Source: a virus
Taxonomy: Duplodnaviria > Caudoviricetes
Virus record (IMG/VR): IMGVR_UViG_3300020045_004870
Coordinates: 1 to 32,146 of that record
Reading direction: 5' to 3' (one strand)
DNA length: 32,146 bases
Each line of letters begins with the position of its first letter. The first letter of the stretch is position 1. Under the pieces are notes generated by a model. That model did no database searches. It saw only the letters and a list, made by a program, of their open reading frames with translations, and was not told the origin of the DNA. The position numbers and the translations under genes are program-made. This document shows, one piece after another, positions 564 to 25,724 of this stretch.

Positions 564-805
564 CCGTCAGCCGTGGCGATTTCGAGGATTGGCACCAGCA
601 CCCTGTAACGCAGTGGGTGTTGGCCGCGCTCAGTGCGGAGGGCGAACAGCTCAAGGCGGACTGGATCGCCGCATCGTGGGATGGCGGACATGCCGACCCG
701 ATGCGCCTGATCGAGCTTCGCGCTGCAGCGGCGGCTTACGGGACTGTCGTGCAGCCAGATTACGACGCGCTGTGCGCAGCGAATGAACAAGAACCCACCG
801 ACTAA
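560..805 (+). CDS. hypothetical phage protein (81 aa)
   Basis: ATGA overlap with upstream stop; FEDWHQHPVTQWV resembles small proteins that follow portals. Confidence 0.7.
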   Translation: MTVSRGDFEDWHQHPVTQWVLAALSAEGEQLKADWIAASWDGGHADPMRLIELRAAAAAYGTVVQPDYDALCAANEQEPTD

Positions 806-815
806 GGAGGCCAGG

Positions 816-1175
816 GTGCCAATTCCTAAACTTGAAGATTGCCGACCGGGACTTACGCCTACGGGTTTCAACGTACTGGTAGCCGTAGAGCCGGCGCAGC
901 AGCAGACCACGGGCGGCTTGTGGAAGCCTGACACGGTGGTTGCCAAAGAGCAGCTTGTTGAGGTGCGCGGACGCATCGTCGCCATGTCACCCGCAGCGTT
1001 CGACTTCGCGAACTGGCCTGATGGCACGCGGCCGGAAGTCGGCAACGCGGTGCAGTTCGCCAAGCTCGGCGGCATCATGACCAAGGGCGCGGACGGCAAG
1101 GAATACCGCCTCATGGCCGACAAGGACATCGCCGCGATTGTGGACGAGGCGGCATTTATGGGGATGGCAGCATGA
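816..1175 (+). CDS. GroES/Cpn10-like co-chaperonin
   Basis: PTGFNVLV..TTGGLWKP..GRIVAM..VGNAVQFAKLGG..GKEYRLMADKDIAAIV matches the Cpn10 pattern; GTG at 816 follows AAGGAGG. Confidence 0.85.
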   Translation: MPIPKLEDCRPGLTPTGFNVLVAVEPAQQQTTGGLWKPDTVVAKEQLVEVRGRIVAMSPAAFDFANWPDGTRPEVGNAVQFAKLGGIMTKGADGKEYRLMADKDIAAIVDEAAFMGMAA

Positions 1176-2551: not shown

Positions 2552-3133
2552 ATGGCTAACTCGAATGCACCAATGGGGCTGATCCCCAAACGTTACCGGA
2601 ATGGTTCGCCCTGGATGGGCGTCCTTCGTACCTACTTCCGTCCTGCTACCGACGCCAACGCGCTGTTCGTGGGTGATCCTGTCGTTCTGGCAGGCACTGG
2701 CGACACCGCTGGCGTTCCCGGCGTTGTCCGCGCTGGCGTTACGGGCTCGATCACTGGCGTTGTCGTCGGCTTCCGTCCGGTGTCGAACGTCAACCAGATC
2801 ATCCCGCCGCGCTTCCTTGCGGCTTCGACGGCTGGCTATGTGCTGGTCGCCGATGATCCTGCACTCCTGTTCGAGATTCAGGATAACGGCACGGCTATCA
2901 CTGGCGACATCGGCCTGAACGCCAATCTGGTAGCTGGTGCCGGAAATCAGCTTACCGGCCAGTCCGCCTATCAGGTGGATTCCACGACCAAAGCTGTCAC
3001 GGCAACGTTGCAGCTTCGTATCGTCTCGCTCGAACAGCGTGCCGATAACGTCCTTGGCGCTAACGCCAAGTGGCTGGTTGCTCTCAACACTCCGACCGAG
3101 ACTGGCGCCGCTGGCGCTCTCGGCGTCGCATAA
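2552..3133 (+). CDS. putative capsid decoration/minor capsid protein
   Basis: GAGGGG RBS; G/A/V-rich beta-type sequence (ALFVGDPVVL, VADDPALLFEIQ); directly upstream of the major capsid gene. Confidence 0.65.
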   Translation: MANSNAPMGLIPKRYRNGSPWMGVLRTYFRPATDANALFVGDPVVLAGTGDTAGVPGVVRAGVTGSITGVVVGFRPVSNVNQIIPPRFLAASTAGYVLVADDPALLFEIQDNGTAITGDIGLNANLVAGAGNQLTGQSAYQVDSTTKAVTATLQLRIVSLEQRADNVLGANAKWLVALNTPTETGAAGALGVA

Positions 3134-3147
3134 AAGGGGACTGAACG

Positions 3148-4056
3148 ATGCCCGCAGGCGTAATCACTCGTTCGGCTCACCCCGACGCACTCTGGCCCGG
3201 CGTAAAAGCTTGGTTCGGCCTCGAATACGACAAGGTGCCCGCCACCTGGTCGCAGATCTTCGAGAAGATGAGTTCCGACAAGTTCCAGGAGCGCATCGTC
3301 GAGGGGACCACGTTCGGCCTCGCACCGAACCGCACGGAAGGCGCTCCCGTCGAGTATGACAGCGACGGCGAAGGCTATGTGGCGATCTTCCAGCACGCAG
3401 TTTACGCGCTGGGCTACATCGTCACGCAAGAGGAGTTGGAAGACAACCAGTACCAGCAGGTTTCCCAGTCGCGCTCGGCCAATCTGGCCTGGTCGATGCG
3501 GACCACTGCCGAGTACGTCCATGCCAACGTCTTCAACCGTGGCTTCGACGCAAACTATCCGATCGGTGACGGCCAGCCGCTTTTCTCGGCCGCACACCCA
3601 ACCATGTCGGGCAACCAGTCGAACCTTCTGACCCCGGCAGACATGTCGGAAGCTGCGGTGGAAGACGCAGTGAAGAAGGTGTGGCGGATGCAGAACAACC
3701 GCGGCTTCCCGCTTAACGGTGGGATCAAGCGTATCGTGGTGAACCCGGAGAGCGCTTTCAACGCAACGCGCATCTTCAATTCGGTTCTGCGCTCCGGCAC
3801 GGCAAACAACGACATCAACGCACTGAACGCCATGGGCACGGTGCCTGAGATCGTTGTCGATAAGTACCTGACGAACACGGTGAGCTGGTTTGTCCAGACC
3901 GACGTGCCGAACGGTCTTATCTCTATGTGGCGGCGTGATGTCACCCTGTCGAAGGACAACGACTTCGACACCGACAACGCGAAGGCAAAGGCAACGATGC
4001 GCTTCTCGTGCGGCGCTGCTGACTGGCGCTCGGTCTACGGCAATGCCGGGGCCTAA
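3148..4056 (+). CDS. major capsid protein
   Basis: 302 aa; ITRSAHPDALWPG, EGAPVEYD, YALGYIVTQEELEDNQY, GDGQPLFSAAHP, DNDFDTDN, ADWRSVYG resemble a widespread capsid family; biased codon usage. Confidence 0.9.
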   Translation: MPAGVITRSAHPDALWPGVKAWFGLEYDKVPATWSQIFEKMSSDKFQERIVEGTTFGLAPNRTEGAPVEYDSDGEGYVAIFQHAVYALGYIVTQEELEDNQYQQVSQSRSANLAWSMRTTAEYVHANVFNRGFDANYPIGDGQPLFSAAHPTMSGNQSNLLTPADMSEAAVEDAVKKVWRMQNNRGFPLNGGIKRIVVNPESAFNATRIFNSVLRSGTANNDINALNAMGTVPEIVVDKYLTNTVSWFVQTDVPNGLISMWRRDVTLSKDNDFDTDNAKAKATMRFSCGAADWRSVYGNAGA

Positions 4057-4098
4057 ACTACGCTAACCCGTAGTCGCTAACCCGCCCGGAGGATTATC

Positions 4099-4344
4099 AT
4101 GTATTCCTATGATTATCAGCCGGGCGGGGCCTACGGACAATGCCCCAGGTGCGGCTTTAAAAAGCGCCTCAACGATCTTCGCTTGGAATGGTCCGGCCTG
4201 CGCGTTTGCTCCCCTTGCTGGGATCCCCGGCCCGACACCATGAGCCCTCCCGTCGTGTATCCCGAAGGCTTGCCGCGCCCTGACGCGCAGCCTGAGCTTC
4301 CCGACGCATTTATCCAAACCACCGTTCGCCCCGAGGATCTGTAA
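4099..4344 (+). CDS. small Zn-ribbon protein
   Basis: GGAGG RBS; CPRCG and CSPCWD motifs. Confidence 0.75.
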   Translation: MYSYDYQPGGAYGQCPRCGFKKRLNDLRLEWSGLRVCSPCWDPRPDTMSPPVVYPEGLPRPDAQPELPDAFIQTTVRPEDL

Positions 4345-5907
4345 TTGCTCCTGCGAACATTCTCTGCTGCCGGTCGATCCTCTACGGTTTTCCGCGTTAG
4401 CCCGCTTGTGGCTAGCAGCGGCGCGATCCCGCCTGTCGGGAATAGGCTTGTTGGACAAGTTTCCGGATCCGGCAACGTAACTGCGACAATTAAAATCACA
4501 GGCAAGAATTTCTTGTCTGGCGCTATCCCAGGGCTGGGAAGCGTATCCGGCGTAATCTTTAATGCTCCTCACGGTGCTTCGGCGCTCACCGGCAATGTGA
4601 TCGGTTCCGGGGCCCTGTCCGCATCTATCACGAATACCCCAACCGTGGCGTGGAACAGCAACGTCAATATGGTTGTGGATGGCAACAGCTTCATCAACCC
4701 AAGCGAAGGTTCGACGGGCGGCCAAACGCTGAGCAACCAGCTTCAAGCGTTGCCTCCGTTCGCCGGATCCGGCGCCACTGCGACGACGCTCGGCCATTCG
4801 GGGTTCTCCTGGTCGCAGTTGGATGGCGCTGCAAGCACGGTCGATGCCGCATTCGTACCCGGAAAGATCAATATTCTCGTCGTGGGCGAGACGACAAACA
4901 CCGTCTTCAATACCGGGGCTGATGCGGCAACTACCATTACCCAGACCAAGGCCTACGTCGCTAACCGGCTGGCGGCGCATCCGTGGGATCGGATCGTTCT
5001 GTTCGGGACCATCCCCCGTCAGTCTGGCGGGTCTGTCGCTGCGCAGAATGCAATCCTGACCGCTGTCGATGCGGACATGAAGAACAACACGTCTGCATAT
5101 GGAGCATACCATTTCGTGGATGTGCGCGCCGGCACGATTTACGCCTTCCCGGACTACACCGACGCGAGTTTCACGGCAGCTAGAGCATATTATTACGATA
5201 CGCCGATGATCCACCCGACCAATGCAGGGTACGGGATTCTCGCGAAAGCATTGTCGGACTATCTGCGTACGATGCCGCTGCCTACAGCATCCAATGCCAT
5301 GTCCGGCAGCGTGGCAGGTATCGGAGCGGTTTCGGGCACCATGACTAATAGCGGCGGTGTCACGGCAAATTATATCCGCCTTACGCCGACCCGAATGACT
5401 GAATCTGTCAATGGCGCTGGTGGATATAACTATGCCGCCAACAACGACGGCGGGTACGATACCAACTATACCGTTGGTCAAACGACACGCTTCCTGCCGG
5501 CAGGCCAAGACGGTTGGTTTCAGATTGTCTCGCAAGGGCAAGGCAATAACGGCCCTATCCTAGCGCTTTCCGTAAACCCCAATCCTGTCAGATATCAAGA
5601 CAGCGCTGTGGGCGCTTATATGGACAGTAATTTCAATAGCTCAGGATACAACTATATCTTGAGTGGCGGAGGCAGCGTCGGTTCCGCCAACAATACCGGA
5701 ACGGTGCAGGTAGGTGACCTGCTGAGATTGCGCCGCACAGGATCTTCTATTGTCGCGGAGACCAGTAAGAACGCAGGAGCCACTTGGGTTAATGTGTATT
5801 CGTTTTCTGGAACATACACGGGCGCATTGTATCCGATATTCCAGACCGGCACGACCAATTCGTATGGGGTGATCGTGCAACCTTCTGCATCATCTAACGT
5901 GGCTTAA
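4345..5907 (+). CDS. putative virion fibre with SGNH/GDSL esterase domain
   Basis: VVDGNS (block I), GHSG (II), GETTN (III), DTPMIHPTNAGY (V); Gly-rich repeats; beta-rich C-terminal domain; TTG start abuts the upstream TAA, so the start is uncertain. Confidence 0.75.
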   Translation: MLLRTFSAAGRSSTVFRVSPLVASSGAIPPVGNRLVGQVSGSGNVTATIKITGKNFLSGAIPGLGSVSGVIFNAPHGASALTGNVIGSGALSASITNTPTVAWNSNVNMVVDGNSFINPSEGSTGGQTLSNQLQALPPFAGSGATATTLGHSGFSWSQLDGAASTVDAAFVPGKINILVVGETTNTVFNTGADAATTITQTKAYVANRLAAHPWDRIVLFGTIPRQSGGSVAAQNAILTAVDADMKNNTSAYGAYHFVDVRAGTIYAFPDYTDASFTAARAYYYDTPMIHPTNAGYGILAKALSDYLRTMPLPTASNAMSGSVAGIGAVSGTMTNSGGVTANYIRLTPTRMTESVNGAGGYNYAANNDGGYDTNYTVGQTTRFLPAGQDGWFQIVSQGQGNNGPILALSVNPNPVRYQDSAVGAYMDSNFNSSGYNYILSGGGSVGSANNTGTVQVGDLLRLRRTGSSIVAETSKNAGATWVNVYSFSGTYTGALYPIFQTGTTNSYGVIVQPSASSNVA

Positions 5908-5919
5908 AAGGAATATGAA

Positions 5920-6321
5920 ATGACCGGGTTCAGCACGTATCTGCAAACTGCTATCGATAATTGGGCTAAGGGGACTGCGTTCCCTGCTGCGCCGGCTGGG
6001 GTCTATGTCGCCCTGTTCTCGGCGGATCCAACCGACGCGGGTTCACTCACGAATGAGGTAACGACCACCGTGCGTACGGCTGGACGCGTCCTTGCCACGT
6101 TCGGCGCGGTCTCCACAGCGAGCGGTACCAGCACGATCTCGAATAGCGGCATCGTTGATTTCGGGAACGCGGCGGGGGCTGCCACCGTCACCTACTTCGG
6201 CCTCTTCGATGCGACCACGGGTGGCAATATGCTCGGCTCCGGCACGATCAGCGGCGGCTCTATCTTGAGTGGCAACGCTGTTAGTTTCGCAGTCGGCGCA
6301 CTGACGTTCTCGGCATCCTAA
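5920..6321 (+). CDS. small structural protein (fibre-associated)
   Basis: AAGGA RBS; YVALFSADP, TVTYFGLFDATTGGNML, FAVGAL motifs common in phage structural proteins. Confidence 0.75.
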   Translation: MTGFSTYLQTAIDNWAKGTAFPAAPAGVYVALFSADPTDAGSLTNEVTTTVRTAGRVLATFGAVSTASGTSTISNSGIVDFGNAAGAATVTYFGLFDATTGGNMLGSGTISGGSILSGNAVSFAVGALTFSAS

Positions 6322-11941: not shown

Positions 11942-12618
11942 TGGTAGCAGTAGCTATCGGCGGCGCGGCTCTCGTTGGCGGCGCTGCGTCCATCGCCAGT
12001 TCGAATAAAGCATCCAGCACTGCTGCAGATACAGCCGCCGCCAATAATGCGCTCCAGTCTCAGATCTACAACGAGAATAAGGAGACGCTTGCGCCGTTCG
12101 TAGCGCAGGGGGCGCCGGCTACCAATTCAATCAACGCTCTTCTTGGGCTTGGCGGGGACTCTGCTGCGACTGCCGCTGCTTACCAGACCTACAAGGACAG
12201 CACTGGCTATCAAGCGAGCCTCAAGCAGGGTCAGAATAGTGTGACCGCCGCGCTAGGGTCCAAGGGATTGCTGGATAGCGGGGCCGCACAGAAGGCGCTC
12301 CTGACCTACGGCCAGAACGCCGAGGATGCGAAGATGGGCACGTATCTGTCTGCACTCCAAGGCCAGCAGAATGTCGGCCTAACCGCTGCGTCCGCACAGG
12401 CTGGTGTTAGCACCGGCTACGCCAACAGCGTTTCGGCGAACAATACGGCTGCATCGAATACCGCCAGCAATGCCGCTCTATCGAATGCCAGCACGATCAA
12501 CTCGGCGCTCGGGAATTCCGTTTCCGCCTATGGCTATAGTCAAGGATTGGGGTCCAGTTATGGGTCCGGAACCAACGCCTATGGCATCAATAACGTCACT
12601 GGTGACGGGATCTATTGA
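11941..12618 (+). CDS. DNA ejection protein (P22 gp7-like)
   Basis: TAATG overlap; hydrophobic Gly/Ala N-terminus, STGYQASLKQG, GLLDSGAAQKAL. Confidence 0.75.
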   Translation: MVAVAIGGAALVGGAASIASSNKASSTAADTAAANNALQSQIYNENKETLAPFVAQGAPATNSINALLGLGGDSAATAAAYQTYKDSTGYQASLKQGQNSVTAALGSKGLLDSGAAQKALLTYGQNAEDAKMGTYLSALQGQQNVGLTAASAQAGVSTGYANSVSANNTAASNTASNAALSNASTINSALGNSVSAYGYSQGLGSSYGSGTNAYGINNVTGDGIY

Positions 12619-13577
12619 TGGCCGACTTCTCCCTCATCCAGCAGCCAAACTTCGCGCAGGCGGCACTCGGCGGCTATCAGGCTGGCCAGAAGGTCGGCAA
12701 GCAGCGTCAGCTTGACACTGCCATGGCGGGTATTGATCTGGAGCGCCCCGAGACGCTCCTGCCGATCCTGCGCGCTGATCCAACGACTGGCGCGGCTCTG
12801 ATCGGCGCGAGCACGAAACTTGCCGCTGAGAAGCGCGACCAAGCGTCGCGCGCGGCTACGGCAGCATACATTAAGAGCATTGCGCCAACCTCTGCAGGCG
12901 GGGTTCTGGGGGGCACTCCTTCGCCCTCTACGCCTTCGAGCGTTGCTGCTCCAACTGATCCGGCAGCGGGGGCCTCGGCGCCTACTGCTGATCAGTCTGG
13001 TGATATTGTCGTAACGGCTGCCCGCGCGCCGACTGCGGATCCGAATGCGCTTCGGAACGCTGCTATTGACGCAGACCCAAGCGCATTTCTCGACATGCAG
13101 TCGAAGCTCGGCGCTATGACCAAGACGCAGAGAGAGTCACTTAGCGATGCAAGCGAGGCTTTCGCCGCAGTTGGCCAGCGTGCGCTTGAGGTTCCTTACG
13201 CGCAGCGCCGTGGATACATCCAAGCGCAGGCGGGATACCTTACCGCGCACGGCATCAGCCCGCAACAGATCGCCGGTTTTGATCCGACTGACGACGCTCT
13301 GCATACCGAGGTTGGCAAGGCGCTTGGTGTCAAGGGGCAGCTAGACCAGCATAATAAAGATCTGGACCGGCAGATGGAGGAGGCGAAGTTCTCCGAATCC
13401 AAGCGGCATACCAGAGTAGAAGAAGGGCAGGGCGCGCAGCGGATCGGCCTAGAGGGCGCCTCAGTGGGACTTTCCCGCCAACGCTTTGAACTTGAGAAGA
13501 AGAAGGCTGGTAGCGCGGCTGGTGCTGTCTCAGGCATGTCCACTGATGACCTCCTTGCTATCGCCGCGGGTAAATAA
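12618..13577 (+). CDS. putative DNA ejection protein 2
   Basis: TGATG overlap; Ala/Gln-rich helical protein in the ejection-gene position. Confidence 0.6.
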   Translation: MADFSLIQQPNFAQAALGGYQAGQKVGKQRQLDTAMAGIDLERPETLLPILRADPTTGAALIGASTKLAAEKRDQASRAATAAYIKSIAPTSAGGVLGGTPSPSTPSSVAAPTDPAAGASAPTADQSGDIVVTAARAPTADPNALRNAAIDADPSAFLDMQSKLGAMTKTQRESLSDASEAFAAVGQRALEVPYAQRRGYIQAQAGYLTAHGISPQQIAGFDPTDDALHTEVGKALGVKGQLDQHNKDLDRQMEEAKFSESKRHTRVEEGQGAQRIGLEGASVGLSRQRFELEKKKAGSAAGAVSGMSTDDLLAIAAGK

Positions 13578-20164: not shown

Positions 20165-20241
20165 TGGAGCGCCCGGTGGGATTCGAACCCACAACATCGG
20201 GAATAGAAGTCTCGTGGCCTATCCAGTTGGCCTACGGGCGC
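20165..20241 (-). tRNA. tRNA-Arg (anticodon UCU)
   Basis: GCGCCCG TA GGCC AACTGGATA GGCC A CGAGA CTTCTAT TCCCG ATGTT GTGGG TTCGAAT CCCAC CGGGCGC T CCA; 77 nt, A20 Arg identity base, encoded CCA. Confidence 0.95.
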
Positions 20242-20289
20242 ATGGCCGGGGTCGGGCTATGCCGCCCCGGATGTTAAACTAAGAATAGC

Positions 20290-20316
20290 CTAACGTCGGC
20301 GCCTGAGTATCTTCAT
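20290..20316 (-). CDS. putative leaderless leader peptide MKILRRRR
   Basis: ATG AAG ATA CTC AGG CGC CGA CGT TAG; the ATG starts at the 7th nt after the -10 box. Confidence 0.55.
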   Translation of the reverse strand: MKILRRRR

Positions 20317-20322
20317 GGGAAA

Positions 20323-20351
20323 CCTATAGACTTCTTCGCCCATTCGTGCAA
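20323..20351 (-). promoter_or_regulatory. promoter of leader peptide + tRNA-Arg
   Basis: (C)TTGCAC-N17-TATAGG on the - strand. Confidence 0.7.
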
Positions 20352-20359
20352 GATGTCAT

Positions 20360-20455
20360 TGCTGCGGCGGTGCATCATGCAGCGCAGTTGGGGTGCGGGC
20401 TTTAGGGCTTATTCGTCTGTTCGATTCAGGTCGTGGTGCCAAAGCCGCCGCAGCA
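20360..20455 (+). ncRNA. tRNA-like RNA enclosed in a 12-bp outer stem
   Basis: Outer stem TGCTGCGGCGGT/GCCGCCGCAGCA; acceptor-like GCATCATG/CGTGGTGC; D-arm GCGC-AGTTGGG-GTGC; T-arm GTCTG-TTCGATT-CAGGT; G-U pairs favour the + strand. Confidence 0.6.
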
Positions 20456-20471
20456 CTTAAGTCCTAGCTCG

Positions 20472-20642
20472 CTAGGCTGCCGGGAGTCGCGACCCGGCGT
20501 TGATGGTGCGGGAGAGCGCCACACTGCTCGCTGATACTACGGTATCACCCGGCGCCACTCCCATAACAGCCACGATAGCTCTAAGCTGAAACACCGCCTT
20601 TACGTAGGCAAGCTCGCGCAGAATGGCGGCGGTGTCTGTCAT
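20472..20642 (-). CDS. possible 56-aa protein (not in ORF track)
   Basis: TAATG coupling to upstream ORF; MTDTAAILRELAYVKAVFQLRAIVAVMG...; overlaps a hairpin-rich region. Confidence 0.4.
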   Translation of the reverse strand: MTDTAAILRELAYVKAVFQLRAIVAVMGVAPGDTVVSASSVALSRTINAGSRLPAA

Positions 20643-20842
20643 TATGATTGCACCATCTGGTCAGGATCGAAGTCAAAGCGCTGGCAGAGTTGCCAAGCAT
20701 AGGTGGAGCCGAGGCCGAACCGATCCATTACGGTCGCCCACAGCGGGCGGCTATCGAAACGATTGAGACCACTTCTCCGGGACATGCTGGCGATCACTCG
20801 GCGCAGCAGTTCGGTGTCGGGGATCTCGGGCGCGTCAGCCAT
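20642..20842 (-). CDS. hypothetical protein (66 aa)
   Basis: GGGAG RBS; overlaps upstream stop; FGLGSTYAWQLC..FDFDPD. Confidence 0.7.
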   Translation of the reverse strand: MADAPEIPDTELLRRVIASMSRRSGLNRFDSRPLWATVMDRFGLGSTYAWQLCQRFDFDPDQMVQS

Positions 20843-25526: not shown

Positions 25527-25675
25527 GGTTCAGAGGCAGGATGCCGAATTGCAACCTTTGCTCCTAGGTGCATGACGCACCAATCAGTGGATCAAAGCTG
25601 GAACATAACCGGTCGAAACAAGAACGTTACACAAGGGGAATTTACGTTTTCCGCCTTGCGCGGCCGTGGGTTAGG

Positions 25676-25724
25676 GGTTTCCTAAACCGTAGGCCGCGCG
25701 TTCAAATCGCGCCGGGGGCTCCCA
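25676..25724 (+). mobile_element. attP core: 3' half of tRNA-Arg(CCU)
   Basis: GGT-TTCCTAA-ACC anticodon arm, GCGCG-TTCAAAT-CGCGC T-arm, CGGGGGC-T-CC acceptor strand; no 5' half; 55 bp from the integrase stop. Confidence 0.85.

Follow-up and report, generated by a model that had tools for sequence, protein, structure and literature searches.

What does a tRNA-shaped element with a recognizable elbow and no usable anticodon arm do beside a genuine tRNA gene in a phage genome? The window, meaning the whole 32,146-nucleotide stretch of viral DNA analysed, is a virus genome rated 74% complete in IMG/VR. A PHROGs scan of its 46 ORFs reveals a P22-like virion module, lysis genes extending to ~20161 and a leftward block that includes a tyrosine integrase; the phage is temperate and P22-like. 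The named relatives of the integrase (70-77% identity) are mostly Sphingobium and Sphingomonas proteins, and so, to judge by sequence relationship, a sphingomonad is the likely host. The element occupies the gap 20242-20641, where the late and leftward operons meet, and is divergent from, and back to back with, a tRNA-Arg(UCU) gene (20165-20241, minus strand) recognized by ARAGORN and Rfam. AGA is rare among the arginine codons of the phage (24 of 552 in 33 ORFs), and the phage has its own tRNA-Arg(UCU). A GroES-like gene lies within the head module (783-1175, plus strand), and the last gene of the leftward operon (20642-20842, minus strand) encodes 66 amino acids and has a homologue in G408.

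The original prediction was of a non-decoding mimic of the tRNA elbow, held in an outer stem and with a promoter of its own. Its D arm, T arm, 8-bp acceptor-like stem, 18-nt spacing between D and T stems, lack of a 7-nt loop, 12-bp outer stem and divergence from the real tRNA are all confirmed from the sequence. The features are as follows.

20327-20354, plus strand: predicted sigma-70-type promoter, with -35 TAGACT (20327-32), a 16-nt spacer and -10 CAAGAT (20349-54) ending 6 nt before the helix
20361-20454, plus strand: whole closed RNA domain, 60.7 bits with a leave-one-out model and fold z -2.66
At or adjoining 20361, plus strand: predicted +1, from promoter geometry
20360-20371, plus strand: 5' strand of the terminal helix, with core GCUGCGGCGG at 20361-70; 11-nt perfect inverted repeat, invariant in 4/4 close homologues
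20372-20379, plus strand: 5' strand of the 8-bp acceptor-like stem (positions -1 to 7)
20382-20396, plus strand: D arm, GCGC/GUGC with loop AGUUGGG, G15 and G18G19; stem invariant in 4/4 and hence without covariation
20397-20414, plus strand: middle arm standing where a tRNA has its anticodon arm; at best a weak hairpin of 5 bp and a 4-nt loop, with unrelated arms in the homologues
20415-20431, plus strand: T arm, GUCUG/CAGGU with loop UUCGAUU; compared with homologues, both sides differ in 3/5 pairs
20432-20439, plus strand: 3' strand of the acceptor-like stem, C20439 being paired position 73
20440-20443, plus strand: 3' bulge CAAA, where the homologues have a small hairpin
20444-20455, plus strand: 3' strand of the terminal helix, pairing with 20360-71; invariant in 4/4
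20460-20640, plus strand: hairpin-rich gap with a terminator-like site at 20628-40; folds weak (z -1.79, -0.17), terminator scan at chance level

The strands that close the helix are GCUGCGGCGG/CCGCCGCAGC, and the whole outer stem has 11 Watson-Crick pairs and one U.G; the acceptor-like stem contains two U.G pairs. G15:C48 is present, with C48 read off the sequence as 20414, and position 8 is C. The CCA at 20439-41, originally taken as a tRNA end, is rejected as such: position 73 is paired and the letters at 73-75, CCA in the window, are ACA, GCA and GCA in the three close homologues, so that the proposed end was out of register.

Standard tools pass over the element. Rfam, at gathering thresholds and at E 10 or below, has no match on 20360-20455, RF00005 included, and ARAGORN calls neither a tRNA nor a tmRNA there. 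Among the 30 of 424 matches listed when the region was compared by BLAST with cultured phages, all are only to the stretch with the real tRNA-Arg; the equivalent region of a close homologue, L183, has matches at tRNA level, and that of another, L310, has no plasmid match. Fold stability over 20361-20454 is beyond that of any of 200 shuffles (z -2.66). The cloverleaf of the window copy, at -41.1 kcal/mol, lies 3.5 kcal/mol above the minimum-energy fold (-44.6), and only the outer helix has pair probabilities near 1, with those of the D and T stems at 0.09 or less; the minimum-energy fold of L183 is exactly the proposed structure. With six wobble pairs against 3-5 in the homologues, the window copy is the most degenerate. 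Pairing between the element and the adjacent tRNA-Arg was equalled by 35 of 1000 shuffles, in a comparison picked post hoc.

Homologues add to the argument. A query made up of just the letters of the two loops (D and T) and a short spacer gave 117 loci, one of which (L080, the same place as L183) has the full design, with an identical outer helix and a different T stem and middle; as this first homologue was found by its D and T loops alone, the identity of the helix counts as support. A metagenome scan gave nine loci, two of them (L310 and L314) of the same type. All 28 proposed pairs are kept in the window and its three homologues (112/112 cells), and four pairs have changes on both sides: three in the T stem and the -1:73 pair, which reads G-C, U-A, C-G and C-G. 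The controls were lower, both shuffles (3/500 for pairs) and the six slid ones. Neither the outer helix nor the D stem shows any variation among the four sequences, and since these are only four and related, the covariation is support rather than proof. A model built from the three homologues alone, with the window left out, gives the window copy 60.7 bits (rough E 1.7e-9) and the real tRNA and the opposite strand 27.3 and 15.9 bits. The middle arm, of 18-34 nt, is unrelated between sequences and forms no 7-nt loop, the loops in the homologues being 3, 11 and 12 nt. Two body-specific viral scans recovered L183 alone, and a 13-nt match in L120 proved not to be part of any element.

In L183 and L314 the element lies between lysis and accessory genes, in the orientation opposite to that of the window copy, and in two members of the wider family (L172 and L176) it is antisense inside the virion operon, right behind the stop codon of gp10. 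This P22-like virion protein is common to 8 of the 14 carrier records compared, and no other widely shared protein was found among those 14. L183 has a second promoter as well, from 3908 onward (plus strand). It lies 160 nt beyond the close homologue, and behind it the same 5' helix strand recurs ahead of a long non-tRNA body. L310 (252-288) and L314 (~2845-2880, minus strand) share a hairpin-like motif of ~35 nt downstream of the element, with a differing spacer.

The original prediction overlooked the constant sequence of the outer helix and its presence on many unrelated RNA bodies. Searched for by itself, the helix gave 38 viral matches, 32 of them distinct, with a T loop in seven of the 32; a scan with helix plus T loop found the exact helix in 9 of 19 viral loci (seven distinct). 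A permuted helix of the same composition, the one permuted control used, found no loci. In unrelated phages the same helix closes bodies with three or more different types of D arm, as well as RNAs without a T loop. In some members it continues the acceptor stem directly; most members of the wider family have no internal loop where an acceptor end could be freed, and a free CCA is present in none, except perhaps L187. As most of these members came from a search with the helix, its apparent constancy is inflated. A helix-blind scan, with one D-arm type and a long middle, gave nine loci: the helix is present in two, exactly in one case and with a compensated change in the other; two from one phage type have a more divergent compensated form; and five have other extensions or none. 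The helix is thus favoured and not obligatory, and similar designs with other helices exist.

Carriers of the wider family are mostly phages, and the family occurs largely in temperate P22-like ones. Neither of two patterns was found in a sphingomonad-family search of host chromosomes (0/401 genomes). Among alphaproteobacterial genomes 3/401 matched, one being L207 and the other two at control level (three control matches), so in the genomes searched the family was not found as a host gene. A genome-contig scan, swamped by ordinary tRNAs, yielded a single member (L207, where the element stands first in a series of real tRNA genes) among 120 of ~580 loci. Rfam matches on member loci are to RF00005 only, several members at 30-44 bits. 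A search of the open-licence literature at listing level found no paper describing the family, and this phage RNA family, tRNA-shaped, non-decoding and with an end helix of fixed sequence, is apparently undescribed.

Several neighbouring types of RNA came to light. Helix-closed RNAs with matching promoters and no clear tRNA body are present in L141 (3001-3091), L142 (3001-3088), L144 (3001-3087), L148 (548-658) and L308 (580-684), those of L141 and L144 being near endolysin genes. Near-identical helix-closed RNAs with a leucine-type D arm are found in L169, near terminase and portal genes, and in L309, L311 and L316. Other RNAs shaped like tRNAs, whose anticodon arms are abnormal and whose extended acceptor helices differ in sequence, are present in L319/L321 (1494-1572), L324 (1486-1588; its loop contains a 6-nt palindrome), L320 and L325.

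The promoter is a second recurring component. In 11 of 15 members picked for their tRNA body the -10 box ends exactly 6 nt before the helix, and in 11 of the 15 the promoter score is at least 10.5, against a background of 1.9% at 10 or above. The same promoter precedes 4 of 25 distinct helix matches without a T loop, as well as the L308 RNA and the second RNA start in L183, these having been picked partly for their promoter. Several of the family's -10 boxes are without -7T, as reported for alphaproteobacteria in PMC8407463. For the window, the weak promoter originally proposed holds in that both hexamers are present and their geometry recurs in the homologues; a scan for consensus promoters found none at the element. 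Its spacing is right and its score, 9.0, is reached by ~6% of random positions, and its -10 box is weaker than those of the homologues, with C at -12. Weak alone, it is supported mainly by the geometry in homologues.

Expression could be followed in public RNA runs searched with L171, a provirus member of the wider family whose tRNA body differs from that of the window and its three close homologues. In all four stranded raw-read runs the sense depth of 536-1150 over 4033-4155 compares with 40-80 immediately upstream and 5-15 immediately downstream, and antisense depth is 0-2; strand was assigned by the usual convention, which agrees with the plus-strand genes nearby. The transcript rises at the element and ends at ~4192, ~105 nt beyond the helix, and much of the signal covers that extension. 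By analogy, the gap at 20460-20640 is a possible 3' extension of the window transcript. Read ends pile up at 4009, just inside the helix, in three of the four runs; stops of reverse transcriptase or loss of ends may account for the pile-up, which is not a mapped start, and it does not coincide with the RNase P site given by a 12-bp ruler (about 4003-4004), keeping in mind that it may be technical and that short processed RNAs are under-sampled in such libraries. When 20 kb is divided into 30 bins, coverage in all four runs peaks (245-414) in the one that contains the L171 RNA together with part of a second small RNA, and the late-gene strand of the same provirus stands at 0.1-14: the RNA is expressed in a lysogen. 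The second abundant small RNA (3690-3830, plus strand, depth up to ~1460) is upstream of the member with its own promoter-like site, and the two contain three occurrences of a 9-nt motif between them. In the quiescent provirus (L336), discrete transcripts (~5723-5965 and 12535-13000, plus strand) are antisense to late genes.

Among known systems the element works most like a Y RNA, yet it is not one. According to PMC4201824, the Y RNAs YrlA and Yrn1 are, like the element, non-decoding, have D and T arms with elbow nucleotides joined to a conserved terminal module, and occur in phages too. The YrlA motif described there, GNCGAAN0-1G, is absent from the four sequences on inspection, and whereas the same paper gives YrlA a closed hairpin between T and D, the element has D before T and an open-ended acceptor. 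The helix sequence is unrelated to that of the Y RNA, and a Ro60/TROVE gene was found in 0/19 carrier records, several of them incomplete (a control was positive in 2/14). The originally suggested Y-RNA-like module thus fails as YrlA membership, on motif, arm order and Ro60, and survives as a good analogy in its logic of a terminal and a tRNA-like module. Allo-tRNAs and irregular polycistronic tRNAs (PMC5389517 and PMC7609411) resemble the element in their lengthened acceptor stems and G-1 forms, in being found in phages and near mobile elements and, for some, in their absence from translation; they keep a 12-bp 8/4 or 9/3 branch and an anticodon, whereas the element has an 8/5 branch, an 11-12-bp helix and no anticodon loop. 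T4 RNA C and RNA D, stable phage RNAs like the element, are late RNAs of unknown function according to PMC9697503; they are set apart by description, lying in tRNA clusters of lytic phages, whereas the present family has its own promoter and a fixed +1 helix. With a canonical tRNA (RF00005) the element shares the D-loop GG, T-loop UUCGA, G15:C48 and the 5-bp T stem. It departs from one in that position 8 is C, a 7-nt anticodon loop is missing, a helix encloses both ends and there is no free NCCA. In the tRNA-like domain of tmRNA a G3:U70 pair is accompanied by a tag frame; a tmRNA identity was rejected, pair 3:70 of the element being U.G and ARAGORN finding none. ARAGORN does mislabel some members as ordinary tRNAs (Tyr, Pro, SeC, Ala).

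That the family consists of real, selected, non-decoding RNA genes is very likely, and the mimic as originally conceived is supported by covariation, promoter geometry and the expression of a wider-family member. As to its job, we tentatively favour, at somewhat under even chances, a stand-alone tRNA-shaped RNA gene whose product in lysogens would be a stable decoy or tether, a putative binder of a host protein through helix and elbow. A rather doubtful competitor is a stabilizing or processing handle, for which any strong helix suffices, the sealed 5' end and elbow protecting or releasing a downstream cargo RNA. The ~105 nt of L171 transcript past the helix, the tRNA run headed by the L207 element and the hairpin-rich gaps downstream in the window, L183, L310 and L314 would suit it. 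The fixed helix sequence on unrelated bodies is left unexplained by it, however, and at 6 of 17 loci, twice inside the virion operon, a convergent gene stops 6 nt or less from the helix, leaving no room for 3' cargo, so that the unit would seem to be the closed domain, which behaves as a compact insert. A scaffold of the C4/CI type, in which the tRNA fold, perhaps trimmed by RNase P, presents a variable middle loop to phage or host mRNA, is decidedly unlikely. Phage P4 CI is an antisense RNA grouped with C4. PMC5320573 describes P1/P7 C4 as a small RNA of phages that comprises several stem-loops, contains a variable loop and is expressed in lysogeny, features that the free variation of the middle arm, comparable to the C4 specificity loop, and the expression of the L171 member in a lysogen would match. 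Unlike C4, the element has true D and T loops and is not upstream of an antirepressor, no such family appearing in the PHROGs scan of the 46 window ORFs; its own middle loop is a mere 4 nt. It has no C4-clan match at E 10 or below, c4-a1b1 appearing only at 20458-20500 (11.4 bits against a gathering score of 46.7, E 6.8), and in 13/13 records the longest match to the own genome, 10-12 nt, was no better than to other genomes, in a test confined to cis targets and contiguous seeds. The proposal of such a regulator lost ground.

It is also unlikely, though a little less so than antisense action, that the family is functional and the window copy is decaying and now neutral. The window copy has the most wobble pairs, the shortest middle arm, a lost trailer hairpin and C at -12, it has no RF00005 score at E 10 or below against 43.5 bits for L183, and the family model found no match in the ten searched of 11 lysozyme-related phage loci. 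Against decay, all 28 pairs form, three T-stem pairs having changed on both sides, and the copy retains an intact T loop, G18G19, G15:C48 and promoter spacing; the window copy is probably still active. A decoy for anticodon nucleases, as first proposed, is most unlikely, for all that the tRNA shape, lysogen expression and the adjoining real phage tRNA would accord with it: such nucleases (PrrC, colicins D and E5, VapC, AriB) read the anticodon stem-loop, the one part that is unconserved here. Equally improbable is an irregular histidine-like tRNA, chargeable once RNase P and Z have cut it out of the outer helix. The window does have G-1:C73, and PMC5389517 reports irregular G-1 tRNAs that HisRS can charge without their use in translation; none of the three homologues keeps that pair, however, theirs being U-A or C-G, and the lack of an internal loop in most wider-family members leaves no way to free the acceptor end. 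An attP-type tRNA fragment or a chance fold is largely refuted. The phage is temperate with a tyrosine integrase, and the letters of a T arm and CCA are present, but a separate tRNA-Arg(CCU)-like 3' half directly beyond the integrase (approximately 25674-25722, plus strand) is the likely attP core, so that the element is not attP, and the covariation of the homologues and the leave-one-out score speak against chance.

How the decoy or tether might operate can be sketched. A sigma-70-type promoter, predicted for the window and with expression seen for one wider-family member, would start transcription at the helix, and the RNA would fold into the elbow and closed helix, for which covariation is available in the acceptor and T stems, the D stem and helix being invariant. 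With an arm missing and the 3' end buried, it should be neither charged nor used in decoding. The paired 5' end would, from established knowledge, be shielded from end-dependent decay. The fixed helix on unrelated bodies, whose promoters share only consensus letters, suggests sequence-specific reading, and the absence, from the 14 records compared, of a widely shared phage protein other than gp10 makes a host factor the likely reader. The prophage may benefit, for instance by blunting an enzyme or defence protein that reads tRNA bodies. Decoding, charging and anticodon-nuclease decoy all fit poorly, because the anticodon arm and CCA are what has been discarded; promoter spacing, end helix and elbow are kept. 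A bolder version, to be entertained with considerable doubt, is that in alphaproteobacterial temperate phages the fixed 10-bp helix at the transcript start is a docking tag recognized by its sequence by an as yet unrecorded host RNA-binding protein, bearing interchangeable modules (elbows from several tRNA classes and other multi-hairpin domains). It would be a Ro60-independent counterpart of Y RNA by which a silent prophage tethers or jams host enzymes of RNA handling or defence.

Phages repeatedly turn out to carry non-decoding tRNA-shaped RNAs, and for almost none of these is a function known. From that perspective a family that separates the parts kept (elbow, fixed end helix and own promoter) from those discarded (anticodon arm and CCA) is instructive, and the abundance of one member in public lysogen RNA data gives an experimental handle. 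There is an annotation issue as well, with some members passing as ordinary tRNAs in ARAGORN. If the helix is a protein tag, it would point to a host RNA-binding factor and to a modular RNA tool kit of dormant prophages.
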